DNA of 64,000 nucleotides from assembly GCA_963847445.1 (NCBI GenBank), contig CAWJZV010000046.1:408749-472748 (forward strand). Reading direction: 5' to 3'. The position numbers were made by a program, and so were the translations under genes. Below, one piece after another: positions 21,923 through 46,742 of the stretch (position 1 is the first letter of the stretch; the number at the start of each line of letters is the position of its first letter). Under the pieces are notes generated by a model. It did no database searches. It saw only the letters and a list, made by a program, of their open reading frames with translations, and was not told the origin of the DNA. The stretch comes from an uncultured delta proteobacterium. GTDB lineage: Bacteria > Desulfobacterota > Binatia > UBA9968.

Positions 21923-21943
21923 TGTGTCTATTGCTCCATCGAT

Positions 21944-22342: not shown

Positions 22343-23444
22343 AACGTTTAAGTTTCCGATCGTCTGCAGCTTGCAAATGCGCTGGCAATCTCTCGAATAG
22401 TTGGTCGGGATCTAAAGCAGCCTCGGAAACAAGCAACTCGCCGGAATCAGTCGTCAGCAACAAGTCAAACCGATCCTTATCGACAGACAAAAATAGCGCA
22501 ATGATGAGCTGCGCCTGCTCCAAGCAGGAGCGGGAATCAGTCGGTCCAGTTTCGCGGACGTCGAGACCGGTCATCAGGCGACGGTGCCCTCGGGCCCAGC
22601 GTGAAGTTGTGTGATCCGCTTCAGGTGCAGTCTTGTCTGTAAAGAAGCGCACGGTCGCGACGTTCCACTTTTGATTAAAATGCTGGACTGTCCTCAGGTT
22701 CCAAGCTTCACTCCAGCGCAACATGAAATAGGGTAGATCCGACTCTTCACAAGGAGGCGGCGGAACGTAGCTGGTGACCGCCGTCGGCTCGATGTATACC
22801 GCTCCTCCGGCCTTTTGCACTTCCAAACACAGGTCAATGTGCTCCTGGTGGCTCAATAACTTTTCATCCAGCGGGCCGAGTTTCGCGAACACGTCCGTGC
22901 GAACCAACATGCAATGGAATTCCGCGTAGTCCCAAGCGCTTCTTTGGAGCGGCACTTCTAGGTTAGCCATGGGAGTATCGAAAAGATATTGCTCGTCGTA
23001 AAGCACTCTTTGCCCTTGTTGCTCGGTGAATTTTAAAATTCCCCCCGCCATGTGGATCTTCTGGCGCTCGATCTCACCAAAAAGATAAAGCGGTCCGACA
23101 ATCCATGCTCCTGTTTCTTCGGCGCATTGCACTAAGGCCTCGAGCCAACCGCGCGTGACCAGCGCATCATTGTCCACGAAGACGATGTATTCGGTGCTGA
23201 TCTCGCTGGCGCCGAGATTTCGCGCTTGGTTAGGCGACAAAAATTGGTCCGTGTGGATAAGTTTGAAGCCCTTTGATTCCGCCTTCGCTGCGATCCGACG
23301 GTACATAGGTTCGGGGGTGCCGGCGCTGACGTAAATCAGTTTGAAAGGAAGTGTCGTTTCCTGGTAAACGTTTTCGAGGGTGCGCTCACTATGGCTGAAA
23401 CGCTCCCTCGGTACTATCACGACGGTGACTTGTGGTTCTGACAT
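22320..23444 (-). CDS. glycosyltransferase family 2, with a C-terminal extension that continues into 21944..22342
   Basis: VTVVIVPRERFSHSERTLENVYQ and YIVFVDNDALVTRGWLEAL (DxD region) are typical of the GT-A fold. The last ~75 aa are not GT-like. Confidence 0.75.
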   Translation of the reverse strand: MSEPQVTVVIVPRERFSHSERTLENVYQETTLPFKLIYVSAGTPEPMYRRIAAKAESKGFKLIHTDQFLSPNQARNLGASEISTEYIVFVDNDALVTRGWLEALVQCAEETGAWIVGPLYLFGEIERQKIHMAGGILKFTEQQGQRVLYDEQYLFDTPMANLEVPLQRSAWDYAEFHCMLVRTDVFAKLGPLDEKLLSHQEHIDLCLEVQKAGGAVYIEPTAVTSYVPPPPCEESDLPYFMLRWSEAWNLRTVQHFNQKWNVATVRFFTDKTAPEADHTTSRWARGHRRLMTGLDVRETGPTDSRSCLEQAQLIIALFLSVDKDRFDLLLTTDSGELLVSEAALDPDQLFERLPAHLQAADDRKLKRYDPASDQ

Positions 23445-23834
23445 AATAAAAGACTCAGGTATCGGCCGATCCCGTTGCAGATCATTCCAGCTTCTAACTT
23501 CCTTTTGCGGAATCTGACCGGCCGCATGCGGTCCTGACTTCTTGCTCCTTTTTGTCCATCACCGGCATTATCGTACATTATCCACGTATCCGCCAAGCGA
23601 ATACATTATCGGCAGTCGATCGAGCTTCGGCGGTCTGAGCTGCAATATGACGGAGTTCGCTCTAGCGGTTAAAATCAGTCAGAGTCTTCGGGTCGGAAGT
23701 CTCAGGGCGGGTTCAGACTTCGTGACAAACTAAGCCTAGTCGCGCCTGCCGGTCGGTAGTGCAAAGCTCAAAATGAAATCCACGGGGGTTCGGTTTTTAC
23801 CTTATCAGTTACCGCTGGCAAAACCCGAAAATGA

Positions 23835-24857
23835 TTAAGCTGATTGGGGCTTGGTTTTTCCCATTCCAAACGACTCCGCCAGCAGTTCGTAGGAGCGATG
23901 GCGCGGCGCGGGATCGTAAGTCCATGTGACCACGACCAGCTCGTCGAGGTCGAGACCTTTCGCGAGTTCTTTCAATCGCGTGGTGACCTGGTCTGAAGAC
24001 CCGACAATCGCTTTCCGGTGTAACTTTTCCGCAATCGCCAATTCAGCGGGCGAATACGGGCGGGTGGCTTCCTCCGGCGACATCAGCGGCTGGCGGATGC
24101 CTAGTTTGCGATCGATCATGGCGCGCTCGCGCGATTTGAACTGGAACAGGGCTTCTGCTTCGGTATCGGCGGCCAGCGCCCAGACGCATATCGTGCAGAT
24201 CGGCTTGGGATTATTTTCGCTCGGGCGATAGTTCTTGCGGTAAAGATCCAGTGCTTGCTCGACACCAAAGCCGTCGCTGAAGAAGTAGGCGAAGGCGTAG
24301 GGCAAACCAAAATAGGCCGCGAGTTGGGCGCCGTAGTCTGAGCTGCCGAGAATCCACATCTCCGGACTCGTCGGTCCCGTCGGTTGGGCAACGATTTTCT
24401 GAAACGGGTGGCCTTCGGGCAGCGGTTTCCCGGACACCCAGTGTTGCAGCTCCTGGACTTGCCGGGGAAATTGATCATGGACATTCTGCGGGTTCGGATT
24501 GAGCGCGTAGGACGTCAATTGATCCGATCCGGGGGCGCGGCCGATACCCAGGTCGATGCGTCCCGGCGCGATGGCCTCCAGGACGCGGAACTGCTCGGCG
24601 ACTTTCAGCGCCGAATAGTGCGGCAGCATGACGCCGGCGCTGCCGATACGGATGCGCGGCGTGGTGGCGGCGATCGCCGCCATGAGGATCTCGGGCGCGG
24701 TGCCGACGATATTACCGGAGTTGTGATGCTCCGAGACCCAGTAGCGATGATAACCCAGCGCGTCGCAATGGCGCGCGAGCTCGAGGGTCTCACGGATCGC
24801 ATTGTCCTGCGCTCGGCCCTTGGCCGCCGTCGATTGATCGAGTACTGACAATTTCAT
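23835..24857 (-). CDS. LLM-class flavin-dependent oxidoreductase (luciferase-like, YhbW-type)
   Basis: MKLSVLDQS...LGYHRYWVSEHHN...PRIRIGSAGVMLPHYSALKVAEQF is typical of this family. The start is chosen at the internal ATG 24857. Confidence 0.8.
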   Translation of the reverse strand: MKLSVLDQSTAAKGRAQDNAIRETLELARHCDALGYHRYWVSEHHNSGNIVGTAPEILMAAIAATTPRIRIGSAGVMLPHYSALKVAEQFRVLEAIAPGRIDLGIGRAPGSDQLTSYALNPNPQNVHDQFPRQVQELQHWVSGKPLPEGHPFQKIVAQPTGPTSPEMWILGSSDYGAQLAAYFGLPYAFAYFFSDGFGVEQALDLYRKNYRPSENNPKPICTICVWALAADTEAEALFQFKSRERAMIDRKLGIRQPLMSPEEATRPYSPAELAIAEKLHRKAIVGSSDQVTTRLKELAKGLDLDELVVVTWTYDPAPRHRSYELLAESFGMGKTKPQSA

Positions 24858-25088
24858 GGATGACCTGCGTGTCGGGCACAGTTCATTGTCGAGTTTGTTG
24901 GGAAGAGCATTCATCACGAATAATACAGTGCGGCAAGGCCGCAACCAAACACCGGAATATCTCGCGCCAAGCTCGCAAAGACCACCAAGTTGTGAGATCA
25001 AATCTCCTTGGGGCCGGGGTTGGGAGGCGTTCGCGTGCGCGCACTTGGCGCGAGAAACGCCTCGGTTAACCGAGCCGATCGCCGACGT

Positions 25089-25982
25089 TTAATCCCGCCT
25101 GTTTGGCAAATTCCGCAGCCGCTGACTCTTGGCGCCTGCGCCGCGGGCTTTTTTCACGGTTAGAGTGCCACCGTTGAGGGCGATGGTGATTTCTGCTCCA
25201 CCGATGCCGGTCACCTGTCCGGCTGGCGCGGCATTATTGCCAGTCTGCAGCCGCGCGTCGAAGATGCGCACCAGCTTGCCGTTGTAGGTCGTGTGCGCGC
25301 CGGGTTGGGGGTCGCAGCCGCGGATTAGGTTATAAACTTCCTGCGCCGGTTTGGACCAGTCGATCTTGGCATGGGCGTCGTCGCAGATGGGGTCGTAATT
25401 GGCTTTGGATTCGTCTTGGACGATGCGCGGCGGGTTGCCGGCTTTGATGAGGTCGACCGCTTCGCCGATCGCTTCGATGCCCAGGGGAAAGATTTTGTTG
25501 AAGTACAACGATCCGGTGGTGTCGTCCGGCTCGATCTTCACTTCCTTTTGCAAGAGGATCGGCCCGGTGTCGATGCCTTTGTCGACCCAAAATAGCGAAA
25601 GTCCGGTGACCGATTCGCCTTTGATCAAGGCCCAGTTGATGGCGCTGGCGCCGCGATACTTGGGCAAAAGCGACGGATGAAAGCAGATGCTGCCGAGTTT
25701 TGGCACGCTGAAAACTTGCTGCGGGACGATCTGGGTGACGAACGCGAGAATCGCTAGATCGGCGTTCAACGCGACGAATTCGTCACACACTTCCGGCGCT
25801 TTGAAGGATTTAGGCTGGCGCACCTCGATGTGGAGATCGATGGCTTTCTGTTTTACCGGGTCGAATTTGCCGTTGGGCGGATCGGGCGGGCAATAGACCG
25901 CGACCACTTTCTCGCCTTTGCCGACGAGTTTTTCCAGAGTCTTTTCGGCAAACGCCGCTTGTCCGATCAATATTATTCGCAT
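25089..25982 (-). CDS. formyltransferase family protein (Fmt-like)
   Basis: MRIILIGQAAF, HPSLLPKYRGASAINWALI and LFWVDKGIDTGPIL are formyl-transferase N-domain motifs. A C-terminal Fmt-like beta-barrel segment is present. Confidence 0.8.
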   Translation of the reverse strand: MRIILIGQAAFAEKTLEKLVGKGEKVVAVYCPPDPPNGKFDPVKQKAIDLHIEVRQPKSFKAPEVCDEFVALNADLAILAFVTQIVPQQVFSVPKLGSICFHPSLLPKYRGASAINWALIKGESVTGLSLFWVDKGIDTGPILLQKEVKIEPDDTTGSLYFNKIFPLGIEAIGEAVDLIKAGNPPRIVQDESKANYDPICDDAHAKIDWSKPAQEVYNLIRGCDPQPGAHTTYNGKLVRIFDARLQTGNNAAPAGQVTGIGGAEITIALNGGTLTVKKARGAGAKSQRLRNLPNRRD

Positions 25983-26047
25983 TTGGTGAAACTCCGAAAT
26001 TGTAGAGCTAGCGCGTTACGAAGACGAGCCACGATCACGATTTCTCG

Positions 26048-26575
26048 TTAGCCGATGATTTTAAAGTCGCCGCCCTTGTAGCTCCGGCATAGATTGACGT
26101 AGGTGGTTGAGCCCATCTTGATCCAGTGCAGCGCTTCGCCGGTAATTTCCTTCTTGACCTTGGCGGGCGCGCCGGCAGCGAGCACTCGAGGCGGGATGAT
26201 CGTGTGCGGCGTTACCACGCTGCCGGCGCCGATCAGGGCTTCTTCGCCGATCTCGACATGTTCGAGCAGGGTGACGTTCATGCCGATGATCGCGCCGCGC
26301 TTGACCAGCGGACCTTCCATGATTGCGCCGTGGCCGATGGTGCAATCTTCTTCGATGATCGTCGGTGCTTCGCCGGAATGAATCACGCAGTTGTCTTGCA
26401 CGCTGGTGCGGGCGCCGATGACGATGGGATTGGCGTTTTGATCCGAGCGCAAGACCGCGCCCCACCAGATGCTCGCTTCATCGCCGATGGTGACATCGCC
26501 GATGATCACTGCGGTGGGCGCGATGAACGCCGTGGGAGAAACATGGGGCCGTTTGCCTTTGTATTCGATGAGCAT
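26048..26575 (-). CDS. gamma-carbonic-anhydrase-like / hexapeptide-repeat (LbH) family protein
   Basis: Hexapeptide periodicity runs throughout (IGDVTIGDEASIWWGAVLRSD...IGHGAIMEG). Confidence 0.8.
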   Translation of the reverse strand: MLIEYKGKRPHVSPTAFIAPTAVIIGDVTIGDEASIWWGAVLRSDQNANPIVIGARTSVQDNCVIHSGEAPTIIEEDCTIGHGAIMEGPLVKRGAIIGMNVTLLEHVEIGEEALIGAGSVVTPHTIIPPRVLAAGAPAKVKKEITGEALHWIKMGSTTYVNLCRSYKGGDFKIIG

Positions 26576-26785
26576 GAAGAGCGAACCTCCGTAGATAAGT
26601 CACGATATTGGACGTGCCCGGGGAAATCAAGATTGTTGGTGCAATGTCGCGAGTGTGGATTGACTCGATTGGTAAAATTGTTAATGCTTTGCCAACTTTG
26701 CAGACCCTCAACCTAGCCCTCTCCCGCATGCCCGGGCGAGGGGAAAAGATTAGGAGAGCGGTCGATACCTATTGGAGGTTAGATT

Positions 26786-27853
26786 GTGAGATATTTTGCT
26801 GTCTTTGCGGTTTCGCTTTGGCCACTCATCGGTGCAGTGGACGTCGCGCTCGCGCAGACCCGCGAGGCGACTCTCGCGGCGCTGGGAAAACTTCCCGCCG
26901 CGGAGCGCCAGGCGCGTTTGGTCGAGGGGGCGAAGAAGGAGAACGGACTGGTTTGGTACTCGAGCACGACGGCGGAAGATGCGCTGGCGCTGAGCAAAAA
27001 GTTCAATGAGCAGCATCCGGCGATCAAGATCAATCACTTCCGTTCGTCCAGTGAGAAGTTGCTCGAACGGATTCTCGCCGAATCCCGCGCCAATGCTTTC
27101 AAAGCCGACATCGTTACCTTGCCCGAGCTGGAACTGTCGCTGATGATCCGGCGCAAACTGTTGCTGCGCTACGAAGCGGTAGAGAATTCTTTCTATCCCG
27201 CCGAGACCAAGGATCCGCGTGGTTTCTGGACCGGGCTGTACACCTCGGCGTGGGTGCCGGGCTACAACACCAAGCAGGTGGCCAAGGATCAGGCGCCGCG
27301 GACTTACAAAGATCTGCTCAACCCCAGGTGGAAGGGCAACATGGCGATGGATAACGAGCCTTTCAACTGGTACGTGATCTCGCTCAATTATCTAGAAAAG
27401 CGCGACGGCAAGGAGGCCGCGGCCAACTACATGAAGCAACTGGCGGCGCAGCAGTTGCAATGGCGCAAAGGCCATTCGTTGATCGGCCAACTGATGGCGG
27501 CGGGCGAGTTTCCCCTCGCCGCCGAGCTGCAAGTGCACACCGTGGAGCGCGCCAAAGCGACCGGCGCACCGGTCGAATGGTCGGTGCTCGACGGCGTGAT
27601 TCCGATTTCTAAAGTCGGCGCGGCGGTCACCAGTACCGGGAACAGTATTTACACTTCGGCGCTGTTTTTTGATTTTCTCTTGTCGCGCGGCGGCATGGAG
27701 ACGATCCGCGCGAGCCGGCGGATCCCGACGCGGCCGGATGTCACGGCGCCGTACTTAAAGCCGTACAAGCTCATCCCATTCGAGCCCCAGGCGATCGACG
27801 ATTTCGACAAATACGTGACGTTGTTCCGCGATACCTTCAAGCCGGGAAATTAA
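26786..27853 (+). CDS. periplasmic ABC-type substrate-binding protein (iron(III)/solute family), orphan
   Basis: It has a signal peptide and overall SBP-like composition (WYSSTTAEDA..., TKDPRGFWTG..., WKGNMAMDN). No permease or ATPase gene lies adjacent. Confidence 0.55.
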   Translation: MRYFAVFAVSLWPLIGAVDVALAQTREATLAALGKLPAAERQARLVEGAKKENGLVWYSSTTAEDALALSKKFNEQHPAIKINHFRSSSEKLLERILAESRANAFKADIVTLPELELSLMIRRKLLLRYEAVENSFYPAETKDPRGFWTGLYTSAWVPGYNTKQVAKDQAPRTYKDLLNPRWKGNMAMDNEPFNWYVISLNYLEKRDGKEAAANYMKQLAAQQLQWRKGHSLIGQLMAAGEFPLAAELQVHTVERAKATGAPVEWSVLDGVIPISKVGAAVTSTGNSIYTSALFFDFLLSRGGMETIRASRRIPTRPDVTAPYLKPYKLIPFEPQAIDDFDKYVTLFRDTFKPGN

Positions 27854-27992
27854 AATACTGGACACTGGAGAATGCAAAATTGACAACGCCGGTCGGAGTT
27901 AAGCGCGTGAGTGACTCTTGGCGTTGAGCTGGTCTCAATTCCTTCTACGGCGTGGCGCGGGTAGAAAGCCTTTCGTTGCTGTGGTTTAACTA

Positions 27993-29451
27993 TTGCGCCG
28001 CTCTGCATTTTGCCGCTACCGACCCGTGATTTCACCGTCATCGACTCATAACAGCGAAACCATTCGCCGTCTGGTTCTGATCAATTCCATCTTGGGTGTG
28101 ACCATCGCGGGAGCTTCCGCGCGGGTCTTCATGATCTCGGTGCCGACGCTGGCAACGGCGCTCGATACCGACATGTTGGGCATCTCTTGGGCGCTGATTG
28201 TTTACCAGATGGCAGGTATCGGCCTGGGCGTGATCTGCGGCCGGCTGGGAGATATTCACGGCCACCACAAGACCTACGGGATCGGTATGTGGGTGATGGC
28301 GCTGGCTTCACTGCTCTGCGGCTTTTCACAAAATATCTGGCAGTTGATACTGTTCCGCTTTCTCCAGGGTATCGGCGGCGCGATAATTCAATCTTCGGGA
28401 CGCACGCTGGCTTTTAAAGCGATGCCCGCCGGCGTCCGAAGGAAAAGCCCAGGGGTTGATGGCGATGTCCCATCAATTGGGCTTCTTTATCGGTCCCCCT
28501 ATCGGCGGGCTGATCATCGATCTGGTGCATTGGCGCGGGGTTTTTTTTCTCCTGTTTGTCCCGAGTCTGGCGGGCGCGGCTTTGTGCATGATGACGGGGC
28601 GCGCCGCGGCTGCCGCACCAATGCGCCGGCAGGCGATCGATTACCGCGGCGCCTTGCTGCTCTTCGCCTTGACGGTACTCGCGACGTTGTTGCTTGATCA
28701 AAAAGTCGCCCAGGCGGTGGGCACCGGCAGCGAGCTGTTGTTGGGGTCGGTATTTCTCGCCGCGCTGTGGCTTTTTCTTGTCCACGAAAAGCGCGCGCCC
28801 AGTCCGCTAGTCGATCTATCGATTTTCTCGGTTAAAGTTTTTGGCTATGGCTCGGTGGGGCTGTTGTTCTGCAACATCAACCAGGGCCTGTCCACCTTCA
28901 TCACGCCTTTTTACCTGCAACAGGTGCTCAACTTATCGCCGACGTTCATGGGCGCGATTTTTCTCGTGCCGTCGTTGTTGAGCATGGTGTTGTCGCCGGT
29001 GAGCGGCGCTCTCACCGACCGCATCGGTTCGCGCTTGCTGTTGATTGTCGGCGTGCTGGTGCTGATGGCGAGCTTTATCATCGGCGCCTACCTGCGCAGC
29101 GATTCTCACTGGCTGCTGCCGACGATTTTGTTAGCTCTTACCGGTATCGGTTCGGCATTTTTCAACACGGCATCGCAGGCGGCGATGATCCGCGCCTTGC
29201 CCAAGGAAAATTGGGGCACGGCGATCGGCATCATCAACGGGGTTTTCGGTCTTGGCCATATGCTCGGCATTTCCTTGAGCGGCATCTTCTTGACCCTGGC
29301 GTTTCGCTACTACACCGGCGATGCCGGCGCGACGCCCGACCCGGCGAATAGCTCTTTGTTCGTGGCGGCGATGAATTTGACCTACGTCTTTGCTTTGGCG
29401 CTCGCCGTCATCCCTTTGTTTACCTCGACTAAGATCAAGGGCAGGGAATAG
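27993..29451 (+). CDS. MFS transporter (one apparent frameshift near 28430; start uncertain)
   Basis: Multiple TM segments and the MFS motif GRLGDIHGHHK after TM2 are present. The second ORF 28456..29451 continues the TM series. Confidence 0.7.
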
Positions 29452-29645
29452 CGCGGCGCCAGTGTCGTCAGCAACGTGTCGTCAGCAACCGTAAATTTAG
29501 GCGCGCGACTCTTGTCATAGAGCTGAAATTTTTATTTTGGACTGCGCCCCTCCGACTGCAGAGATTTCACCAAGAATTGAAGGGGAGCCTGATCGGTTCA
29601 GTTCTGGTTGAGTGTGGGTCACGAATAAGCGTTAGAACCGGCGCG

Positions 29646-30877
29646 CTACTTCAAGGCAAAATTTTTCTCAGCCATGGCGCAAATGCTTTGGCCGATGGCG
29701 AGGGACGCGGTGGCGCCGGGGGATGGCGCGTTCAAGACATGAATCGCGTTCTGGCTCTCTTTGATGACGAAGTCGTCGACCAAGGCGCCGCTGGCGGAGA
29801 CCGCTTGGGCGCGCACGCCGGCGCCGCCGGGAACGAGATCGTCCGCGCCAATCTCCGGCAGCAGTTTTTGCAGGGCACGCACGAAGGCTTTTTTACTCAA
29901 CGAGCGGTAGAGCTCGCCAAAACCGGTCTGCCAATATTTCGCCGGTGATCGCCCAGAAGCCTTTGAATGAGACGGTGCGCCATAGGTCGCTCAAATTGAT
30001 GTCGCTATGGCTGTAACCTTCGCGGGCGTAGGCGAACACGGCGTTGGGGCCGGCTTCGACGCCGCCGCGCGCCATGCGCGTGAAATGCACGCCCAAAAAC
30101 GGAAAAGTCGGGTCGGGCACCGGGTAAATCAGATTTTTCACCAGATGTTCGCGCGCCGGGCGCGATTTTGTAATACTCGCCGCGAAACGGGATGATGCGG
30201 TGCTCCTCGCCTTGGCTGTCGTGATTCTTGCCGCCCATCATTTGCGCGACGATGTCGGATTGCAGGCCGCCGCAGTTGATCAAATTTTTCGTCCGGTAGT
30301 CGCCGCCGGAAGTTTGCAGGATGATCTCTGCGCCGCGATCGAGAATGCCGACCACTCTTTGCGACAGGCGAATATCGCCGTTGGCGTCGCGCACCTTCTC
30401 GCCGTAGGCGGCGGCGACTTTGCGGTAGTCGACGATGCCGGTTTCGGGCACGTAGAGCGCTTTGATGCCGGTGGCGTGGGGTTCGATCTCTTTCAATCTT
30501 TCCGGGCCGATGATCTCCATGCCTTTGAGGCCGTTGGCGACGCCGCGGCGGTGTAGTTCCTCCAGGCGCGGCAGTTCGGCCTCGCTGGTGGCGACGACGA
30601 CCTTGCCGCAGATTTCATAGGGGATGTTGTTGGCGTCGCAAAAGGCGATCAGCTCGGTGCGGCCGCCGACGCAGCTCTGGGCTTTCAACGATCCCGGCCG
30701 GTAGTATAGCCCGGAATGAATCACGCCGCTGTTGTTGCCGGTCTGATGGCGCGCAAGTTGGGCTTCTTTCTCGAGCAGCAATAGCCGGATGTTGGGATGG
30801 GCCGCGGTGATTTTCAGCGCCGTCGCCAGGCCGAGGATGCCGCCGCCGATGATGGTGAGATCGTATTGTGAAGCCAT
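29646..30877 (-). CDS. lhgO: L-2-hydroxyglutarate oxidase-like FAD oxidoreductase (two apparent frameshifts near 29900 and 30140)
   Basis: [17 protein letters not shown] (FAD GxGxxG) and [23 protein letters not shown] are typical of LhgO. Three ORF pieces tile collinearly. Confidence 0.7.
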
Positions 30878-30883
30878 AGTGAA

Positions 30884-30913
30884 GTTCAACGTTCAAGGTT
30901 CAAAAGTTCAAGG
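30884..30913. repeat. tandem GTTCAA array (GTTCAACGTTCAAGGTTCAAAAGTTCAAGG)
   Basis: Four GTTCAA units with 7-8-nt period, read directly, in the spacer between lhgO and the amidohydrolase gene. Confidence 0.8.
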
Positions 30914-30958
30914 TCGGAAGCCGAATCGTTCAGCTACGCCGTACCTTGAGCTGAATGA

Positions 30959-31895
30959 TTATAGGTGCAGCAGGCGGCGTGAATTTTTTTCCGTAAAGCT
31001 CTTAAAATGCGCTGGATCAGCCAGCCCGTTGACCGCGTTGAAGGCTTTGCTGAGCGGTCCCAAGCCGCCGCAGTAGTCCGAGCCGAAGACGATATTGTTC
31101 TCGCCCATCTTGTGCACCAGAAACGCCAGCGTCGTGGCGTCCGAACTGGCGCAGTCGATGAGAAAGTGTTCGAGAAAGATTTCCGCATATTTCTTCTCTC
31201 CGTGCGGTCCTTTGTGCTTCCAGAAAGAAGCGGTGCATCAACAGCGGAATGCCGCCGCCGGAGCTGCGGATGACGATTTGCAGATTAGGATGGCGGTCGA
31301 AGACTCCGCTGGCGATCATGCGCAGGCAGCATTCGGCCACTTCGCCGTCGGACAAGACGGCGTAGGCGACGCCGGCGCCGCCGTCTTCGAGCTTTTTCAG
31401 CGACGGGCTCTGCGCCGTGCCGGCGCCATGGAGAAAGATCGGCAAGTTAAGCGCGTTGATCTTGGCGTAGAGCGGTTCCATGGCCGGGGTGTCGACCAAC
31501 ATTTCGCCGTCGACATGGGGATACATGAGCACGGCGCGAAACCCCTGCTGGGCCATGCGGTCGATTTCGTTTATCGACTCGGCAATGTTTTTCAGCGACA
31601 GCGCAATGATGCCGCCCAGGCGGTCTTGGTGCGGCGCGATGCGCTGGGCCAGGACATCGTTGGACTGGTGCATCACCTCCAGCGCCTGCGCGGCGGTCAA
31701 TTGATCGGCGTAGATGCCGGCGCCCTGGCAAATCAGCTGCATGTCGATGCCGGCCTCGTCCATTTCTTTGACGCGCTTGGCCAGATCCGGGGAGTCGTAG
31801 GCGTCGATATGCGGCTTCTTGCCGGTCAATTGGCCGATGCGCTCGGCGACTTCCGGCGCGGTGTGATGGGCGTGCCAGTCGATTACGGTAGCCAT
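30959..31895 (-). CDS. amidohydrolase family protein (Amidohydro_2) (one apparent frameshift near 31200)
   Basis: MATVIDWHAHH at the N-terminus and IVFGSDY in the shifted C-terminal frame are typical metal-ligand motifs. Confidence 0.7.
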
Positions 31896-32130
31896 GGCGA
31901 GTCTCCTTCGTACTTGTCGGTTGAGTTGGCAATACTGCGTCTGACTTATCACAGTCAAGCGCGCTTTGGTAAGTTCGTGCTTGCCGAGAATGAATGTAGT
32001 TGGGTTTCTACCGGGATCGCCGAGCCGAAAAGATTTCTCGCACGGCTCGAAATGACCGATTGTCTAGAGCGCAACCAGGATGAGGTGCCGAGAGCGCTAT
32101 CTGCGAACGATCTTGAAATGAGCCAGCGGC

Positions 32131-32776
32131 CTATTTCTTCGGCGCGCCGGCGAATTCGTTCTTGTCTTTGAGGCGGCGCACCAGCTCTTCGTAGGAGGAT
32201 TTGGCGATCACGCGGTTGAACTGGGAACGATAGTTGTTGACCAGGCTGATGTTCTCGGCAACGACATCGTAAACCTTCCACTCGTTGCCGACCAATTGAG
32301 CGCGGTAGTTGATCGAGTATTCTTCGCCCTTGCTGGTGACAATTTTGCTGTTCACGTCGGCGTAGCCGCCGTCGACTTTTTCGGTCAAGTAGACGATTTT
32401 TTCGTCGATATAGGACTCGATGATATCGGCGTAGGCACGTTCCAGTACCTCGGTGAACAGGCGGACAAATTCTTCCTGTTCCTGAGGCGTGCGCCGGGTC
32501 CAGTTGGGGCCGAGAGAACGCTTGGCCATTTCGGCAAAATTGAACCGGCTAAATAGCACCTGTTTTAGTTGTTCGCGTCGTTCGGACTGCTTGGTCGGCG
32601 GCTTCAAGCGCGGGATCTCTGAGCACCACTAAGGCCTTGTCGACGGTCGCCTTGATCTGGTCCGTGGGCAGGCCGGCGCGGGCCTGGGAGGCGGTCAGGG
32701 TGACTGCTGCAAACCATAGGGCTATTAGAAGCTTCACTGGATTATTTAGACTTAGGGGTCTCATCTTTTTTTTCAC
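32131..32776 (-). CDS. mlaC: MlaC/Ttg2D family phospholipid-binding protein (one apparent frameshift near 32590)
   Basis: It has a signal peptide, then FNFAEMAKRSLGPNWTRRTPQEQEEFVRLFTEVLERAY, typical of MlaC. It lies downstream of mlaD. Confidence 0.75.
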
Positions 32777-33224
32777 CTTTAGACGTCAGATCGCCGCCAA
32801 CAATTTTACCGATCAAATCGGGAATATCCGGCGGGGAGTCGGTTTCGCGAATTTTCCCGCCGGCAGGGATGATTTTATCCGATGCGCCGGGCGATACCAA
32901 GACAAATTTATCGCCGATCAAGCCGCGCGCCCGAACTGAGGCGATGACATCTTCCTGGAGCTTGACGCCGTCGTTAAGCCGCAGGGTCAAGCGGGCCTTA
33001 TCTTCGGCCAAGGTCATGCCTTCGACCCGGCCGACTTTGACACCGGCGATCTCCACGGGATCCCCGAGCTTTAGACCGGCAACTGAGGCAAAATCGGCGA
33101 AAAGCACGTAACCCTGGGCGCCGAACACTTCAAGCTTGCCGAGACGGATGGCGAGATAGCCCAGGCAGGTAATGCCGACCAGGACAAAGATGCCGACTAA
33201 TATATCAGTGCGTGTATGATTCAC
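32742..33224 (-). CDS. mlaD: MlaD (MCE domain) protein
   Basis: An N-terminal TM helix is followed by FADFASVAGLKLGDPVEIAGVKVGRVEGM, the MCE core pattern. Confidence 0.85.
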   Translation of the reverse strand: MNHTRTDILVGIFVLVGITCLGYLAIRLGKLEVFGAQGYVLFADFASVAGLKLGDPVEIAGVKVGRVEGMTLAEDKARLTLRLNDGVKLQEDVIASVRARGLIGDKFVLVSPGASDKIIPAGGKIRETDSPPDIPDLIGKIVGGDLTSKGEKKDETPKSK

Positions 33225-36423: not shown

Positions 36424-39194
<2,771 letters not shown>

Positions 39195-40225: not shown

Positions 40226-40435
40226 TTTGTTGGTCATCTCGACGAAAAAGAAGAGGTTTCCGATTCCTCAACTCAGCGGTGACTCTGCAATATGCGCTGA
40301 AGATATTAAGCAACGCGGCGAATAGGTGATTATCGATGTCGGCAAAAATCGAAGTGTGTCGTTGACGAAACTACGCAGCGGCAGCCGCAGCGACTTCAGG
40401 GATGTTGTTAGTCAGGCGATCGGGGTCTACTTTTT

Positions 40436-40505
40436 TTCACAACAATCTGAAGAGAAAGTCTTGAAACAAAAGTTTTACTCGTTTTCTTTTTCTTCATAAG
40501 TCGTG
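40436..40505 (+). repeat. island II repeat, 5' module copy 1 (TTCACAACAATCTGAAGAGAAAGTCTTGAAACAAAAGTTTTAC...)
   Basis: It aligns over about 70 nt with 45640-45709 with few substitutions. Each copy lies downstream of a plus-strand cargo gene (TIR, MBL). Confidence 0.75.
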
Positions 40506-40739
40506 CCCCGCTGCGGCCACAGGCGGAACGGACTTAGGGGACATCCTATAATTTTCTTGTCAAGTAGTATTTTAAAAAAACTTATCCGTCGAGCTTTACA
40601 GCCTGAACAATCTTTTTGTCCACCAGCACCAACGGCGAGTCTCTCACTTTATTCGAACTCTGCACCTAAGCGTTACAATTATCCGGCGTACTTGCTTTCA
40701 GTCGCCCAGCATCCCTTATCCAGGTTGCAGCAGTTCAGT

Positions 40740-40812: not shown

Positions 40813-41489
40813 GCCCGCAGAACCGATCTTATTACGGACCGGCTCTGCAGTAGCTCAGCGCGATCTTTCTCACGCTGAGAGTTCGTTTCACCGGTGCGGC
40901 TTTAAAAACGGCTTCCATAAAAGCCCTATAACGCACGCGCCGCGTCGGGTTGGACCTTTGGTATACCTCCGTTTTTCATCTTGGCGTTGCTGGCGGCTGC
41001 GATCATCTGATCGCCGGCACCGAGATAGCCAGGGTCAGGAGAAGGGGTCAGACTCTCATGTCTCGACTTTCTTCATCGGGTTCTCAAATCCCGCCGCATT
41101 TCTTCATCATTTTTCAACCGTGAAGCAATCGATGGACGTTGTTGACTAGCTGGACAACGAGGATCCGAGGGTCAAATAGTTTCGACTTATTGCCAAGCTG
41201 ATTTGAGCCGGTCGAAACCGACTTTTCCTTCGCTTCTACCTTTTCAGAGCATGCTCGGAGGCTCGCTCTTTTTCGCGCTCCCAACGCGGTCGATAATTGC
41301 GTCCAGCAATTCATCGACCCTCTTCGGCTTAAGATTGAACAACAAACCCGCTTCTCATGGTTTCCTTCCTGCTGATCCTGAATCCGGAAATAGAGTTTTG
41401 CTCCGCTCACGCGCTTCGCACAGTTCCTACAAAGACGGCACCACCCATATCTCATGTCGCCGCTGGAATTTATGCAGCGACTCGGCGCG

Positions 41490-41680
41490 CTGGTACCGCT
41501 CGGGCAGTTTGCGCGAGCGTCGGGACAGGGAACAAATCAAGCGCATCCGACCGCTACATCGCCCGAATCGGCCGAAGCAAGATCCGCGATTGTCAATCAA
41601 CACACGTGCGATTGACGGCCCGCCGGTTCGGCGCTATAGCTCCCGTCAGCGAAAAAGGCTGTTTAACTGTCGTATACAGC
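41490..41680 (+). repeat. island II repeat, copy A (core plus 3' module)
   Basis: It contains the core GACAGGGAACAAATCAAGCGCATCCGACCGCTACATCGCCCGAA and the 3' end TATAGCTCCCGTCAG...GTTTAAC shared with copies B, C and D. Confidence 0.75.
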
Positions 41681-41756
41681 AATGGCGTCTCTCTCGTTTG
41701 TCTATTTGCCCGTTCGGCGATGCTCTGTTAAAGTTATGGTGAGTTGAGGATCACTG

Positions 41757-41996
41757 ATGGAAACCGTAAATATCGATGAGATGCATCGTGACTTTGCTCG
41801 CGTCATGGATAGGGTCGCTAAGGGCGAAGAAGTTGTGATTACCAGCGCGGGGAGTCCGGTGGCGAAATTGGTGCCTTTCAATCGGCCTTCTGTGCGGCGC
41901 GTGCCGGGTTGTTGGAAGGGTAAAGTTCGTATCGCTCCTGATTTCGATGTTCTGCCACCAGAAGTGGCGGCGGCCTTTCGCGGCGACGTTCCGTGA
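41757..41996 (+). CDS. Phd/YefM family antitoxin
   Basis: VNIDEMHRDFARVMDRVAKGEEVVITSAGSPVAKLVP is the Phd/YefM N-terminal pattern. It overlaps the downstream PIN gene by 4 nt. Confidence 0.8.
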   Translation: METVNIDEMHRDFARVMDRVAKGEEVVITSAGSPVAKLVPFNRPSVRRVPGCWKGKVRIAPDFDVLPPEVAAAFRGDVP

Positions 41997-42370
41997 ATTT
42001 ACTTCTGGACACCCACGTCCTCCTATGGTGGCTGGCGGACGATGCTCTTCTTCAGCCTGCAGCTCGCGACGCCATCCGAGACCAAGCGAATGTTGTCTAT
42101 GTGAGCGCAGCGACGGCATGGGAAATCAGTATTAAGAAAGCGCTTGGAAAGCTCGATTCACCGGACGATCTCGCCAACACTCTTGAACTCAATAACTTTC
42201 ATCCTCTGGAAATCACCATTGCCCACGCCACGATGGCTGGGTCCCTGCCGCGTCACCATGATGACCCTTTCGACAGAATGCTAATCGCCCAGGCTCAAGC
42301 CGGCCAGCTCACCTTGGTTACACATGATGGATGGTTTCGCGCTTACGGAGTTGCGGTAATTTGGACCTAA
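41993..42370 (+). CDS. vapC: PIN domain toxin (VapC family)
   Basis: LLLDTHVLLWW (first acidic residue), SAATAWEISIK and DPFDRMLIAQA are PIN signature segments. Confidence 0.85.
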   Translation: MNLLLDTHVLLWWLADDALLQPAARDAIRDQANVVYVSAATAWEISIKKALGKLDSPDDLANTLELNNFHPLEITIAHATMAGSLPRHHDDPFDRMLIAQAQAGQLTLVTHDGWFRAYGVAVIWT

Positions 42371-42537
42371 TGAGCAGTGGGCGGCGTGCTCGATGCCATC
42401 TGTGCTAATGCATTCTTCCGACGTTGGGCCGAAGAGTAACTTCAAGGACACAGGCTGTAATGTGGAGTCTTTGCTTGATTGAAATCTACGCTGTCTGCCG
42501 CATTCTCGGTCGATTGTAAGTCGTCGATCACTAGGAA

Positions 42538-42792
42538 CTAAACAATACCTGACAGTTGTTTTCCTCTGTTGAGAGCGGACACTTGTTTTCAACGCAGGCC
42601 GACGATGCTGCTCGGTCACGCGTTTGAGCGAGCGCACCGACAGGGAACAAATCAAGCGCTTCCGACCTCTGCATAGCCCGAACTATCCGAAGCAAAACGG
42701 CGATTATCACCCAACACTCGTGCGCTCGACGACTCGCCGGTGCGTCGCTACGGGTGCCGTCAGAATGTGAGTTGTTTAAATTTCTTATCCAG
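42538..42792 (+). repeat. island II repeat, copy B (5' module, middle, core, 3' module)
   Basis: CTAAACAATACCTGACAGTTGTTTT..., CCGACGATGCTGCTCGG, GACAGGGAACAAATCAAGCGCTTCCGACC and ...GCCGTCAG...GTTTAAATTTC. It is collinear with copy C. Confidence 0.8.
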
Positions 42793-42861
42793 ACAAAGGT
42801 AGATGGCTACTCCGTAGCAGCCGGCGCTTGACGGCGGTGGGTCAATGGCCGCCTTCTGCTT

Positions 42862-43161
42862 TCACGCCGCTAACGCCTTCAGCACGGCTTTCGGGTCAGT
42901 CTTGATCGCTCGCAGCAGAGCCTTTGCCGGGCCAGTGGGCTCTCGTCTGCCCTGTTCCCAATTGCGCAAAGTACCAACGTCGACGTGCAGGAGCTTCGCG
43001 AACTGCGGCTGACTGAGGCCGGTCATGGCTCGAATCTCCTTGACCATTGCGGCATCGACATAGAACTCTCGCGACGGCGCGCGAACGCCGCGCACGATTT
43101 CATCCATCTGACTCATGCTTTCTACTAATCGCTTAAACAGCTTCTTGTCCATCGTTACCAC
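42862..43161 (-). CDS. HTH (XRE-like) antitoxin
   Basis: IRAMTGLSQPQFAKLLHVDVGTLRNWEQGRREPTGPAKALL is a Cro/C1-type HTH. It overlaps the upstream toxin gene by 7 nt. Confidence 0.75.
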   Translation of the reverse strand: MVTMDKKLFKRLVESMSQMDEIVRGVRAPSREFYVDAAMVKEIRAMTGLSQPQFAKLLHVDVGTLRNWEQGRREPTGPAKALLRAIKTDPKAVLKALAA

Positions 43162-43469
43162 CCCGCATTAATTTTGCGCAACACGGTCTTTTCCTTGGGC
43201 GTCAAGTCGTCTTTGATTCCCTTGCGGTAGATCAGAATCAGTCGAATCTGAGCTTGTGCGACCACGTGGTAGTAGATCACGCGCGTGCCACCACGTTTGC
43301 CCCGTCCCGCCGTCGTCCATCGAACCTTTCGCAAGCCGCCGGTGCCGGCAATGACATCCCCTGCATCCGGTTGGCTGACCAGATGCCGCTGCAGGGCAGC
43401 ATAGTCCTTATCGCTGAGCAGCGCTTGCACATCTGCAGTGAAAATCGGCGTCTCAACGAAGACCATCAC
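43155..43469 (-). CDS. RelE/HigB-2-like toxin
   Basis: FVETPIFTADVQALLSDKDY...GTGGLRKVRWTTAGRGKRGGTRVIYYH...LILIYRKGIKDDLTPKE matches the pattern of HigB-2-type toxins paired with HTH antitoxins. Confidence 0.7.
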   Translation of the reverse strand: MMVFVETPIFTADVQALLSDKDYAALQRHLVSQPDAGDVIAGTGGLRKVRWTTAGRGKRGGTRVIYYHVVAQAQIRLILIYRKGIKDDLTPKEKTVLRKINAGW

Positions 43470-43729
43470 TTACAGTACACTAATGGCGTTTACTACGTCA
43501 ATGACTTACCCTCGAAACGGTCAAGACCGAACGCGCGTGGGTCGATGCAAGAAGCGGGGAAATCTTCATGCGTTCTTTTAAGGTGCTCAACAGAAGCTCG
43601 GCCTTTTCATGTCCCGTTCGAATTTCGCCGCTGATCTTGCTCAGACGACGAATTGTGCGATAGAAAAACCATTCGGGTAGTGAAACAGACTACGAAGGAG
43701 CCGCGCCATGTCCAGACGGCTACTAGCAA

Positions 43730-43972
43730 CTAAACAATACCCGACAGTTGTTTTTCTCAGTTGAGAGCCGCAAGCTGGTGCAACGCAAGCCGACGATGCA
43801 ACTCAGTTTCGCGTTCGAGCGGGCGCGCCGACAGGGAGCAAATCAAGCGCATCCGACCGCTGCATCGCCCGAACTATCAGTACCAAACTCGTGATTTTCA
43901 CCTTGACGACTCGCCGGTGTGGAGATATAGCTCCCGACAGAGGAATGAGGGTGTTCAAATTTCCTATACGTA
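43730..43972 (+). repeat. island II repeat, copy C
   Basis: It is collinear with copy B: CTAAACAATACCCGACAGTTGTTTTT, CCGACGATGCAACTCAG, GACAGGGAGCAAATCAAGCGCATCCGACCGCTGCATCGCCCGAAC, TATAGCTCCCGACAG...GTTCAAATTTCC. Confidence 0.8.
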
Positions 43973-44018
43973 GAACCGACTACATTGCCTGAAACACAAA
44001 CCAAGACACATCAACTTT

Positions 44019-45554
44019 ATGAGCACTAAATGCGTCATCAATGTGGATCTGGCCGACGTGTGGGGTGAGGCTGGTCGTAAAAAATTCCTGCGCACACTCG
44101 GGTGGGGCGATGAAGTCCTCGTGACCGGGCAGAGCTCCACCAGCATTGAAATCGAGACGGTTTATTTCAACGAGCAGCCCGATGGCAGCATCCTGTCCGT
44201 GAAGGAGGCGGGCGTCATCGAGCCGAGAAAATCATCCGGCATCAAAACCGCCGATGTGGTGCGCCCGCGCAATCAGAACGACGTCCTCAAGGTCAATTGC
44301 GTGGACGTCCAGCAAGGCGATGGCTCCGTGATCGAGTCACCCGACGGCAAGGTCATTCTCGTGGATGGCGGCGACAACCAGTTGTTTGCCCGTTACCTCG
44401 CGGGGCGGTACCGCGGAACGACGCCTGAGAATCCGAAGGAAATTGATTGCATCCTCGTGACCCACGGTGACGCCGACCACTTCGCCGGCCTGCCTGAAAT
44501 CTTTAAGTCCGAGACCAACAGCAACAAACGAAAGCGCCTCTTCATCCAGCCGAAACGGTATTACCACAACGGCATCGTCAAGCGCCCGAGCAAGAAGAAC
44601 GGCAAGAGCGTGCCGGACGTTGAACTTCTCGGAGCGACGCGCAAGGTTGGGAACCAGACGTTTCTCACCGGCCTGGAATCCGATTTGTTGAAGGTGCCGG
44701 ACGCGGAGATGAATGCTCCGTTCAAGGAATGGAAGGGCGCGCTCCAGGAATACAACAAGCGCTCCAAAATTGAATTCCGCCGGCTTGAGTTCGGCGACAA
44801 TCAGGCCTTCTCATTCTTCAACCAGGGTGACCTCCGCATTGAAGTGCTGGGCCCGTTGGTGACCCAGGTTGGCGGCAAGTCTGCACTCCGCTTTCTCGGC
44901 GACCCTCCGAAGGGACCGCGCGTCGGCCACGAATCCTTGAATCTGGGCGAGGAAGGATTCAAGGGACACTCCGCGTCGCACACCATCAACGGCCACTCCA
45001 TCGTCTTCCGCCTTGTTTACGGCGGCTTCAGCTACCTCTTCACGGGTGACCTGAATGACGAGGCCAGCCGGTTCCTCACCCGTGAGCACAACGCGGGACG
45101 CCTCAACCTCATGGCCGAAGTCTTCAAGGTGCCGCATCATGGGTCCGCGGATTTCTCCGGCGCATTGTTCCAGGCCGTCTCACCCGTCGTCAGCATCGTT
45201 TCCAGCGGCGACGAAAGCGCGCGGAAGGAATACATTCATCCAAGGGCGACCCTCGTGGGCGCTTTGGGCAAATGGTCGCGAGTTCCCGAGCCGCTCATCT
45301 TCGTCACCGAACTGGTGGCATTCTTCAATGTTGAAGGCTGGTCGAAGCTAGCGGACCCAAAGACGAAGGCGCAAAAGGAGCGCGGCGAATTCTTTGGTTT
45401 CAGCCGCACCGCCTTCGGCATCGTCAAGACACGGACCAACGGCAAACGCCTGTTGGTCTATACCGACAGCGGCAATGTGCAGATGAAAGAGGCGTATGCC
45501 TACGCCCTCGACTCCTCCGGCGTTCCGCAGCCTGCCGTTGTTCTGCGCGCATGA
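44019..45554 (+). CDS. soluble ComEC/Rec2-type MBL-fold hydrolase with extra N-terminal (~95 aa) and inserted segments
   Basis: VDVQQGDGSVIESPDGKVILVDGG, ILVTHGDADHFAGL, FTGDLNDEA and KVPHHGSADF follow the ComEC-type metallo-beta-lactamase motif order. No TM competence domain is present. Confidence 0.75.
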   Translation: MSTKCVINVDLADVWGEAGRKKFLRTLGWGDEVLVTGQSSTSIEIETVYFNEQPDGSILSVKEAGVIEPRKSSGIKTADVVRPRNQNDVLKVNCVDVQQGDGSVIESPDGKVILVDGGDNQLFARYLAGRYRGTTPENPKEIDCILVTHGDADHFAGLPEIFKSETNSNKRKRLFIQPKRYYHNGIVKRPSKKNGKSVPDVELLGATRKVGNQTFLTGLESDLLKVPDAEMNAPFKEWKGALQEYNKRSKIEFRRLEFGDNQAFSFFNQGDLRIEVLGPLVTQVGGKSALRFLGDPPKGPRVGHESLNLGEEGFKGHSASHTINGHSIVFRLVYGGFSYLFTGDLNDEASRFLTREHNAGRLNLMAEVFKVPHHGSADFSGALFQAVSPVVSIVSSGDESARKEYIHPRATLVGALGKWSRVPEPLIFVTELVAFFNVEGWSKLADPKTKAQKERGEFFGFSRTAFGIVKTRTNGKRLLVYTDSGNVQMKEAYAYALDSSGVPQPAVVLRA

Positions 45555-45639
45555 CAAAAACTGGCAACAGCGTCCTTCGGCAGCTTGGGCAGTTCGCTCG
45601 CTGCCCACCGACGAAGATTGATAGGAGTCAGATAATTAT

Positions 45640-45970
45640 TTCACGACAATCTGCAAAGAAAGTCTGGAAACAAAAGTTTTACCGATTTCCTTTTTCTACA
45701 GAAGTCGCGCAGCGCTGCGCGTGCAAGGCGCAGGCAGCCGATTTATTCCAAACTGCCTGAAGGTTGGATCCTGGTGCCAACGTAACCGACGGTGCTGCTC
45801 GGCCTCGCGTTGGAGTGAGCGTGCCGCCAGGGCACAAATCAAGCGCATCCGAGCGCTGCAGCACCCCGCTTCACCATCGCCAAATGGCTTCCGGAAATGG
45901 TCTGCGAATATTACCACTTTCCGGCCGCCACGAAAGAACCGGCCGTACATGGACACATTTAAATTATTGG
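45640..45970 (+). repeat. island II repeat, copy D (long 5' module copy 2, middle, core, divergent 3' end)
   Basis: 45640-45709 matches 40436-40505. CCGACGGTGCTGCTCGG and CCAGGGCACAAATCAAGCGCATCCGAGCGCTGCAGCACC match the B/C middle and core. It ends near CATTTAAATT. Confidence 0.75.
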
Positions 45971-46089
45971 GGTTGGAAGAGTTCAGCGAATGGGCGCAGT
46001 TGGATTGAGTTGATTTCTCGAGCGAGCGGGACGTCGATCTACTAGATCCATGATGTGCCAGGTCAATAAAATCGTTGCTCTCCCTCGGG

Positions 46090-46509
46090 TTAGGGCTTGA
46101 ATGGGATAATATGCAGGTTGGCGATCGGGCGATAGTGTTTAAGATTGGCGGTCGCCAGTGATCCGTTTGTGTCCAGCGTCGAAGCGGCAATCAGCGCATC
46201 GACGACACGCAGTCCATTCGGCAATGCGTGTCGATCGAGCAGGTCGCTGGCTTTTCGACAGTTTGTTTCATTCAAGAATATAACTTGAGCGAAATTTTCC
46301 GAGACGAACAGTTTGACTTCGCGTATTTCCGCATTGTTTCGGCAGCCTTGGGTCAACTCCATGATGCTCAGTACGGAGATCGCACGTCTGGAATAGGCGA
46401 TGGCATCGATCGCCCGAAGCGCTTTTTCACTGCCTCGCAAATACCAGATTAAGATGTCGGTATCGAATACTACCGGGTAACGCGAGGTTGCCGAAGTTTG
46501 CTCAGCCAT
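46090..46509 (-). CDS. vapC: PIN domain toxin (VapC family)
   Basis: VVFDTDILIWYL, SVLSIMELTQG and VDALIAASTL are PIN segments. It lies downstream of a Phd-type gene. Confidence 0.8.
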   Translation of the reverse strand: MAEQTSATSRYPVVFDTDILIWYLRGSEKALRAIDAIAYSRRAISVLSIMELTQGCRNNAEIREVKLFVSENFAQVIFLNETNCRKASDLLDRHALPNGLRVVDALIAASTLDTNGSLATANLKHYRPIANLHIIPFKP

Positions 46510-46742
46510 TGTTCCACGTTGCGATTGTCTTTTCGGTCTTTCCAGATGCCAAAGCCGGCCGCTTTCAGCGCTTTGGGTCGCTTTGCGTCGATGGGCGCTA
46601 GCACCGCGATGGGTTTGTTGCGATAAGTGATCGTCACCGGTTGGCCCTTGCGGACTTCGTCGAGAATGAGCGCGGTTTTATTTCGCAAATCTTTAGCTGT
46701 CGCCGTTCTCACGGTTGCCTCCGAATAAAGTATGCACTTCAA
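46470..46742 (-). CDS. Phd/YefM-type antitoxin
   Basis: TATAKDLRNKTALILDEVRKGQPVTITYRNKPIAVLAPI is the Phd/YefM pattern. Confidence 0.75.
   Translation of the reverse strand: MKCILYSEATVRTATAKDLRNKTALILDEVRKGQPVTITYRNKPIAVLAPIDAKRPKALKAAGFGIWKDRKDNRNVEQWLSKLRQPRVTR

Follow-up and report, generated by a model that had tools for sequence, protein, structure and literature searches.

What are the four co-oriented copies of a modular repeat that punctuate a toxin–antitoxin-bearing island in the genome of an uncultured member of the Binatia, and what do they do for the genes around them? The copies, which we call A, B, C, and D, lie on the plus strand of a 64,000-nucleotide stretch of contig CAWJZV010000046.1 (assembly GCA_963847445.1, positions 408,749 to 472,748 of the forward strand; hereafter, the window). 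A preliminary description made from the sequence alone had recognized a four-copy family with a strongly conserved core, had judged it non-coding and more probably an RNA or a DNA site than a gene, and had refrained from identifying it with the attC sites of integrons. We find that the repeat family is non-coding and confined to a single clade, at genus level, of Candidatus Binatia. On balance, with a probability of roughly 60%, we favor the reading that the copies are 5′ regulatory regions, each belonging to a transcription unit of one gene or one operon, and that the family as a whole reflects the reuse of one promoter ahead of many different genes.

The four-copy family withstood scrutiny. 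The window contains the core word CAAATCAAGCGCWTCCGA four times, where 0.14 occurrences are expected from shuffled sequence, and the core is the best-kept part of the repeat there: its pairwise identity is 73–93% (89–93% among A, B, and C; 73–78% between these three and D), with values outside it of 47–82% for the middle, 79% for the 5′ module of B against C, and 67–75% for the 3′ module. Copies B and C are, as had been noticed, collinear, over about 250 nt, and the composite unit measures 240–260 nt. We divided this unit into three profiled modules—M5, the 5′ module plus the middle (107 nt); MC, the core (58 nt); and M3, the 3′ module with its upstream flank (89 nt)—and located matches to each with nhmmer (Table 1). 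The other two copies needed some redrawing. Copy A does contain the core and 3′ module originally ascribed to it, together with the distal part of the middle; copy D does contain the middle and the core, but the “longer 5′ module” with which it had been credited is a separate 84-nt repeat, whose two copies are 83% identical and are the only ones in the genome and in all fetched loci. The AAACAA/TTGTTT hairpin proposed within the 5′ module is indeed predicted by folding.

M3 has the looks of a sigma-70-type promoter followed by a leader. Its consensus, with the hexamers spaced out, reads ..GCGATTTTCACCAAACACTCGTGCGC TTGACG ACTCGCCGGTGCGGCGA TATAGC TCCCGTCAGAAAAAAGGTTGTTTAAATTTCCTA, that is, TTGACG and TATAGC separated by 17 nt, inside the 16–18 nt that define this promoter class, with a conserved G at −14, and then a conserved leader of about 40 nt (..CCCGTCAGAAAAAAGGTTGTTTAAATTTCC). 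A profile of 73 distinct M3 copies has information maxima at TTGAC and, past the 17-nt spacer, at the G, T, and A of positions −14, −12, and −11, and information stays high over CTC, GTCAG, the run of A, and TTTAAATTTCC. The position of the module relative to genes is equally regular. Taking all fetched sequence together, 52 of 70 distinct M3 copies have a ribosome-binding site and a co-oriented open reading frame (ORF) of at least 80 aa starting no more than 200 nt downstream, compared with 10/70 on the other side. M3 is also by far the commonest piece of the repeat in the window's own genome (approximately 14 copies, versus four of M5 and five of MC), where isolated copies lie 9–200 nt upstream of unrelated co-oriented genes, encoding a nitroreductase, an aldolase, a lipoprotein, a hydrolase, a CoA-transferase, and a carboxymuconolactone-decarboxylase-like protein (CMD). 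Upstream of the nitroreductase orthologues, M3 is kept in 15 of 17 genomes; there the sequence upstream of the −35 hexamer has been exchanged in most lineages, and M5 and MC remain in four. M3 thus travels with, and is conserved with, the gene that it precedes, as a promoter plus leader would; from this position and layout we infer promoter activity.

Two further observations concern M3. A palindrome in the promoter spacer, TCGCCG-GTG-CGGCGA, was considered as a possible hairpin or operator and discarded: its right half alone is conserved, without compensation, so that it reads instead as an extended −10 region. And ahead of one nitroreductase orthologue (L154, on G018:C12, at approximately 2135–2345), an insertion of about 170 nt separates the −35 and −10 regions of the module.

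The upstream part of the unit presents a different picture. M5 and MC are dispensable in the family—most copies lack them—yet they are well conserved where present, the core being about 90% identical across loci and genomes. The most invariant stretch of this upstream part, ..AACGCAAGCCGACGATGCTGCTCGGTCTCGCGTTTGAGCGAGCG.., contains an inverted repeat; CCGACCGCTGC, within the core, is highly conserved as well, and the core as a whole comes in two flavors, AACAAATCAAGCGCATCC and AACACTTTGCGCGCCACC. It lies about 80–135 bp upstream of the presumed start site. Our best guess is that the core holds putative binding sites for a shared regulator, and perhaps also insulates the unit from transcription arriving from upstream. 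Under this model M3 would fire into whichever gene lies downstream, and the spread of the family ahead of unrelated genes would amount to promoter reuse.

Several features sit uneasily with this model. The −10 hexamer ends in C rather than T, and a simple scan with the sigma-70 consensus calls none of the copies. About 240 nt at 75–90% identity is more than a promoter needs, and the role given to M5 and the core is only guessed. In addition, copies B and D have no co-oriented gene after them. The genes following copy B, an HTH/RelE pair, are on the minus strand and face it, and both of its hexamers are degenerate (TCGACG and TACGGG). This might look like the decay of a promoter left without a gene, but the B unit (M3 plus the reversed toxin–antitoxin pair) is 89.6% identical to a stretch of a relative (G023:C397) in which the hexamers are intact even though they, too, face the reversed pair, and in which an intact cupin gene comes further on; the argument from promoter decay is therefore weak.

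The distribution of the family and the arrangement of related arrays bear on the same question. The repeat is present in 20 of 61 relatives (19/30 of the same genus plus the window's own genome, 1/6 from other genera of the family, and 0/24 from the rest of the order). Matches in an exact scan for the −10 block were confined to Binatia-type metagenome-assembled genomes, and scanning the species collection for exact core patterns gave no match. At the syntenic locus of one relative (G003), where the flanking ribonucleotide reductase is 98% identical in amino acids to that of the window, five co-oriented copies each stand directly upstream of one gene, encoding in turn a TctC-like protein, a cupin, an NHL-repeat protein, CMD, and a glutathione S-transferase (GST). 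The only cargo common to that locus and the window is the RelE/HTH pair. Similar clusters are found on contig C21 of the window's own genome and in three further relatives (G022, G023, and G014). Where the clusters can be compared, they differ inside the repeat itself: copies ahead of orthologous CMD genes carry internal deletions with differing end points, and in G003 an extra NHL unit stands between the cupin and CMD genes, with its junctions inside the element. The cluster on C21 (positions 20000–32843; L062) has the order oxidoreductase, cupin, element, CMD, two TIR-domain genes, element, CoA-transferase, and its TIR-domain genes are 37–43% identical to the TIR-domain protein of the window.

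In the window itself, the copies occupy an island of 8 kb that is flanked by a class II ribonucleotide reductase gene on one side and a TctC-type gene on the other, and whose cargo comprises a TIR-domain gene, a Phd/PIN pair, the RelE/HTH pair (opposite strand), a metallo-beta-lactamase-fold gene, and a PIN/Phd pair (opposite strand). Copy A ends 84 nt upstream of the Phd/PIN operon and copy C 53 nt upstream of the metallo-beta-lactamase-fold gene; the RelE-like/HTH operon is found in G023 as well as in G003. Two gene stumps adjoin the repeats. The stretch abutting the start of copy C is what is left of a cupin gene whose coding sequence is gone, and it matches, at 90–94% identity, the sequence immediately preceding cupin genes (383 aa) that are intact in G003, G022, and the C21 cluster; intact versions also occur in G023. 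The sequence following the core of copy D is 91% identical over 147 nt to C21:22878–23024, where an aldehyde:ferredoxin oxidoreductase paralogue is intact, and it translates, with one frame break, to the oxidoreductase C-terminus (..FTIAKWLPEMV..RPYMDT.KLLGLEEFSEWAQLD, then the stop). Because the flank of D matches the 3′ end of this gene, the apparent ..TTTAAAT end of the copy is coincidental, and the stump identifies D as a copy that lost its promoter end and most of the gene that followed.

Table 1. Repeat copies and neighboring features in the island (positions are those of the window)
Feature	Positions	Strand	Parts and context	Evidence
84-nt repeat, copy 1	40432–40515	+	207 nt past the stop of the TIR-domain gene	
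Copy A (distal middle, MC, M3)	41490–41673	+	MC 41524–41577; M3 41586–41673; putative −35 TTGACG 41612–41617, 17-nt spacer, putative −10 TATAGC 41635–41640	nhmmer module matches, alignment, downstream ORF
Phd/YefM antitoxin and PIN toxin operon	41757–42370	+	Downstream of copy A	Pfam PF02604, PF01850
Copy B (full length)	42530–42786	+	M5 42530–42634; MC 42637–42692; M3 42700–42786; degenerate hexamers 42726–42731 and 42749–42754	
RelE-like toxin and HTH antitoxin operon	42862–43469	−	Convergent with copy B	Pfam PF06296, PF01381
Cupin gene remnant	43593–43714	+	5′ untranslated region, ribosome-binding site, and start codon ATG; abuts the start of copy C	
Copy C (full length)	43722–43966	+	M5 43722–43825; MC 43827–43882; M3 43891–43966; putative −35 TTGACG 43903–43908; putative −10 TATAGC 43926–43931	
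Metallo-beta-lactamase-fold gene (511 aa)	44019–45554	+	Downstream of copy C	Pfam PF00753
84-nt repeat, copy 2	45636–45719	+	After the metallo-beta-lactamase-fold gene, just upstream of copy D	
Copy D (truncated, without M3)	45743–45867	+	M5 positions 28–107 at 45743–45821; core 45823–45867	
Aldehyde:ferredoxin oxidoreductase gene remnant	45868–46009	+	Last ~145 nt including the stop, with a frame break; fused to the core of copy D	
PIN toxin and Phd antitoxin operon	46090–46742	−	After the oxidoreductase remnant	Pfam

A plausible history of the island, on the reading of the copies as 5′ regulatory regions, would begin with tandem single-gene units. Copies of 240 nt repeated along such an array would act as dispersed homology at which genes could be inserted, deleted, or swapped, and in the window, recombination at this homology would have scrambled the accessory island, leaving copies A and D truncated and genes reduced to stumps, and toxin–antitoxin and defense genes would have moved in secondarily. 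The variable deletion end points and the stumps at C and D fit such homology-driven rearrangement better than they fit a fixed crossover point.

Two other observations were made on the island and its flank. Positions 41220–41339 and 43593–43714 of the window, which run directly into each other in G022 (L059, 5160–5401), are 2,253 bp apart here, and GAA is found at both junctions; the block between them holds copy A, the Phd/PIN operon, copy B, and the RelE/HTH operon, and a small, possibly ribbon-helix-helix-like ORF on the minus strand spans the junction. A 2,253-bp insertion with a GAA duplication (41340–43592, relative to G022) is not a secure interpretation: G022 has a second paralogous segment that the left junction resembles as well, and duplication and recombination therefore account for the block equally well. 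Separately, the class II ribonucleotide reductase gene at the island's edge (36424–39194) is split between two overlapping frames, residues 1–641 in one and the TSCPD end in another, both of which are in a single frame in a 95%-identical relative (L063); an assembly indel or a real frameshift near 38350–38450 is probably responsible.

Co-oriented repeats between small accessory genes invite comparison with integrons, and with transposable elements that carry promoters. An attC site is an imperfect palindrome, about 55–140 nt long, whose single strand folds by pairing R″/L″ with L′/R′; its end core sites read RYYYAAC ... GTTRRRY, and it belongs to an array next to intI or to an integrase-less cluster (CALIN). 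That the repeats serve a gene-cassette system as sites of recombination, either as overlong attC sites in such a cluster or as the sites of another recombinase, so that the array would be an integron-like cassette array, is suggested by the way they separate small units in one orientation regardless of gene orientation, by the cassette-typical cargo of toxin–antitoxin pairs and a TIR-domain protein, by gene content that varies at the same locus between close relatives, and by the true integron integrases of 9/31 genomes of the genus; we nonetheless hold it to be very improbable. As single-stranded DNA, copies B and C fold no better than shuffled sequence (z of +0.20 and +0.10, with sub-segments ranging from +1.2 to −0.7) and form no hairpin, whereas canonical control sites beside IntI in G014 (GCCTAAC...GTTAGGC, about 60–90 nt) reached z values of −1.8 to −3.1 for four of six, with end-to-end GCCTAAC/GTTAGGC pairing. 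The repeat alignment has no covariation by RNAalifold, the composite at 240–260 nt is too long, and its end motifs depart from those of attC (ACTAAAC, 6/7; GTTYAAA, with 2/4 in the RRRY part). No match to IntI (TIGR02249) exceeds the NCBIfam cut-off in the window's own genome, the 19-kb stretches fetched around three IntI loci in relatives contain no copy of the repeat, and the isolated M3 copies precede ordinary chromosomal genes, with which they are orthologously conserved. Breakpoints fall at many positions inside the element, and this scatter argues against site-specific crossover. Like attC/CALIN arrays such as the Vibrio cholerae repeats, then, these repeats punctuate small units that include toxin–antitoxin pairs and that vary between relatives, but unlike attC they have no imperfect-palindrome hairpin or R/L box covariation, are about 240 nt long, do not stand next to IntI, and lie upstream rather than downstream of genes, bringing a putative promoter; a cluster exists, but its sites fail as attC on folding, covariation, length, end motifs, and context, and we reject that assignment, which the preliminary description was right not to make. 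(Relatives do have integron loci with features of their own: in L055, G014:C15 184000–203500, two full-length integron integrase genes 18 kb apart have canonical attC arrays between them, and tandem arrays of a 9-nt GTTCAAnnC unit lie beside integron integrase genes in G015 at L054 2726–3583 and 10341–10454 and in G014 at L055 1433–2300 and 19291–19336.) A looser form of the idea, also improbable in our estimation, has the 240-nt elements as junction sites of a clade-specific gene-cassette system at which single-gene units with their own promoters are inserted, excised, and exchanged; if true, the agent would be homologous recombination or some recombinase, and the clade would have integron-like arrays with rapid cargo turnover without attC or IntI. 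The main rival, which we consider unlikely, would have the 250-nt composite as a non-autonomous miniature transposable element, bounded by terminal inverted repeats TAGGAAnTAAACAA...TTGTTTAAATTTCCTA and with a promoter pointing outward from one end; the M3-only copies would then be domesticated stumps. Its model would be the Correia elements, miniature transposable elements of Neisseria that carry promoters; the repeats resemble them as short intergenic sequences that would give their neighbors promoters and that have, in some copies, inverted-repeat-like ends with adjacent TA. The copies are multiple and at non-homologous loci, a TA dinucleotide stands next to both ends in several of them, and the consensus ends align in inverted orientation with a score of 21, reached by 9/2000 shuffles. 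Copy by copy, however, most of the inverted matches are no better than chance (W_C 0.94, G022b 0.92, G022a 0.53, W_B 0.09, and a fifth copy 0.07): the complementarity between AAACAA..CTGAC and GTCAG..TTGTTT that had been pointed out in copy B does exist there but is statistically weak, and it is absent from copy C, as was recognized from the start. Homology among copies passes the putative ends on both sides (..CCATTAG; TATAC after TTTCC), so there is neither a sharp boundary nor a target duplication, and nitroreductase orthologues without M5 and MC still have M3, so there is no clean empty site. Unlike Correia elements, moreover, the repeats have weak and inconsistent inverted ends and a far lower copy number, and most are one-ended stumps that keep the promoter alone; truncated copies far outnumber full ones, and no longer element with these ends is present in the window's own genome.

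The sequence might also act as RNA, or have been a gene. That M5 and the core form a functional RNA, whether a small RNA or a 3′-untranslated or cis-regulatory element transcribed from the upstream gene, would accord with a core kept at about 90% while its flanks vary, with a 9-bp hairpin (GCYGCTCGG / TTGAGCGAGC) in nearly all copies, and with the frequent start of M5 about 30 nt past a co-oriented stop codon. We regard it as very unlikely. The pairs of that hairpin barely vary and are uninformative about structure either way, and folding twelve near-full-length copies from eight genomes with RNAalifold, on both strands, gave a positive (that is, penalizing) covariation term for each: the plus strand yielded one short hairpin without compensatory pairs, and the minus strand a weak long-range helix with compensatory change in 3 of 17 predicted pairs. 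Single copies fold no better than shuffles, whichever strand is taken (as RNA, z = −0.53 for B and −0.13 for C). No Rfam model, HEARO/omega RNA included, matches the repeats even at E ≤ 10, and the only sequences in the window to reach an Rfam gathering score are the signal recognition particle (SRP) RNA and two tRNAs, all away from the repeats; the known RNA families are thereby rejected. Of the RNA-or-DNA-site function first proposed, the DNA-site half is thus upheld by the promoter-like position of M3, and the RNA half, mobile-element RNAs included, is not. The preliminary description had named the lack of any conserved fold or covariation, together with a random genomic distribution, as fatal to its proposal; the former is what we found, but the copies are distributed non-randomly. 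Decay from a protein-coding gene can scarcely be credited. The stretch after the core of D truly is a gene fragment, and the window copies do have a plus-strand frame that runs open through the core. The claim that one such frame stays open through all copies did not hold, however, because copy B has stops in all three plus-strand frames, and every frame is interrupted in at least one of the 14 copies examined. Indels among the copies are not multiples of three, Pfam gave no meaningful E-value for any of ten ORFs overlapping them, and in a tblastx search of M5 and MC against the whole genome only the four copies match. A coding origin is accordingly rejected, save for the oxidoreductase stump after copy D, and the earlier judgment that the repeat is non-coding is confirmed.

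The closest described category is that of putative mobile promoters, highly similar sequences found upstream of unrelated genes (Matus-Garcia, Nijveen & van Passel 2012; summarized in PMC3575422), for which that summary gives a threshold of 80% identity or more, over no fewer than 50 nt, for sequences preceding non-paralogous genes, and in which Correia elements, too, are cited. By this threshold several pairs of the Binatia copies would belong: A, ahead of Phd/PIN, and the G003a copy ahead of a cupin gene (80.4% over 143 nt); C, ahead of the metallo-beta-lactamase-fold gene, and a copy on G003:C32 (89.4% over 66 nt); and B and C (83% over 122 nt). Some pairs within one genome fall just under it, and M3 taken alone is 67–79% identical among the window copies. 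As described there, putative mobile promoters share with the Binatia repeats a non-coding nature and similarity both within one genome and across related genomes; neither group is tied to a mobile element or an RNA family already known, or has an established way of spreading. They differ, on the same description, in that the Binatia unit is modular, reaching about 250 nt with a conserved upstream core, and in that it stands in tandem single-gene arrays at a hypervariable locus.

We regard the repeats, then, as a fairly ordinary case of promoter reuse—a new family of the putative-mobile-promoter type, and not a new kind of system. To our knowledge, nothing of this sort has been described in the Binatia, a widespread lineage of soil and sediment of which, as far as we know, no member has been cultured and no promoter mapped. 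The element gives a first point of entry into how promoters are built and reused in this group, and could serve as a search key for its accessory transcription units. It also marks recombination-prone islands that gather toxin–antitoxin and defense genes, and it carries a warning: repeats that separate small cassettes and share one orientation are not necessarily integron sites.

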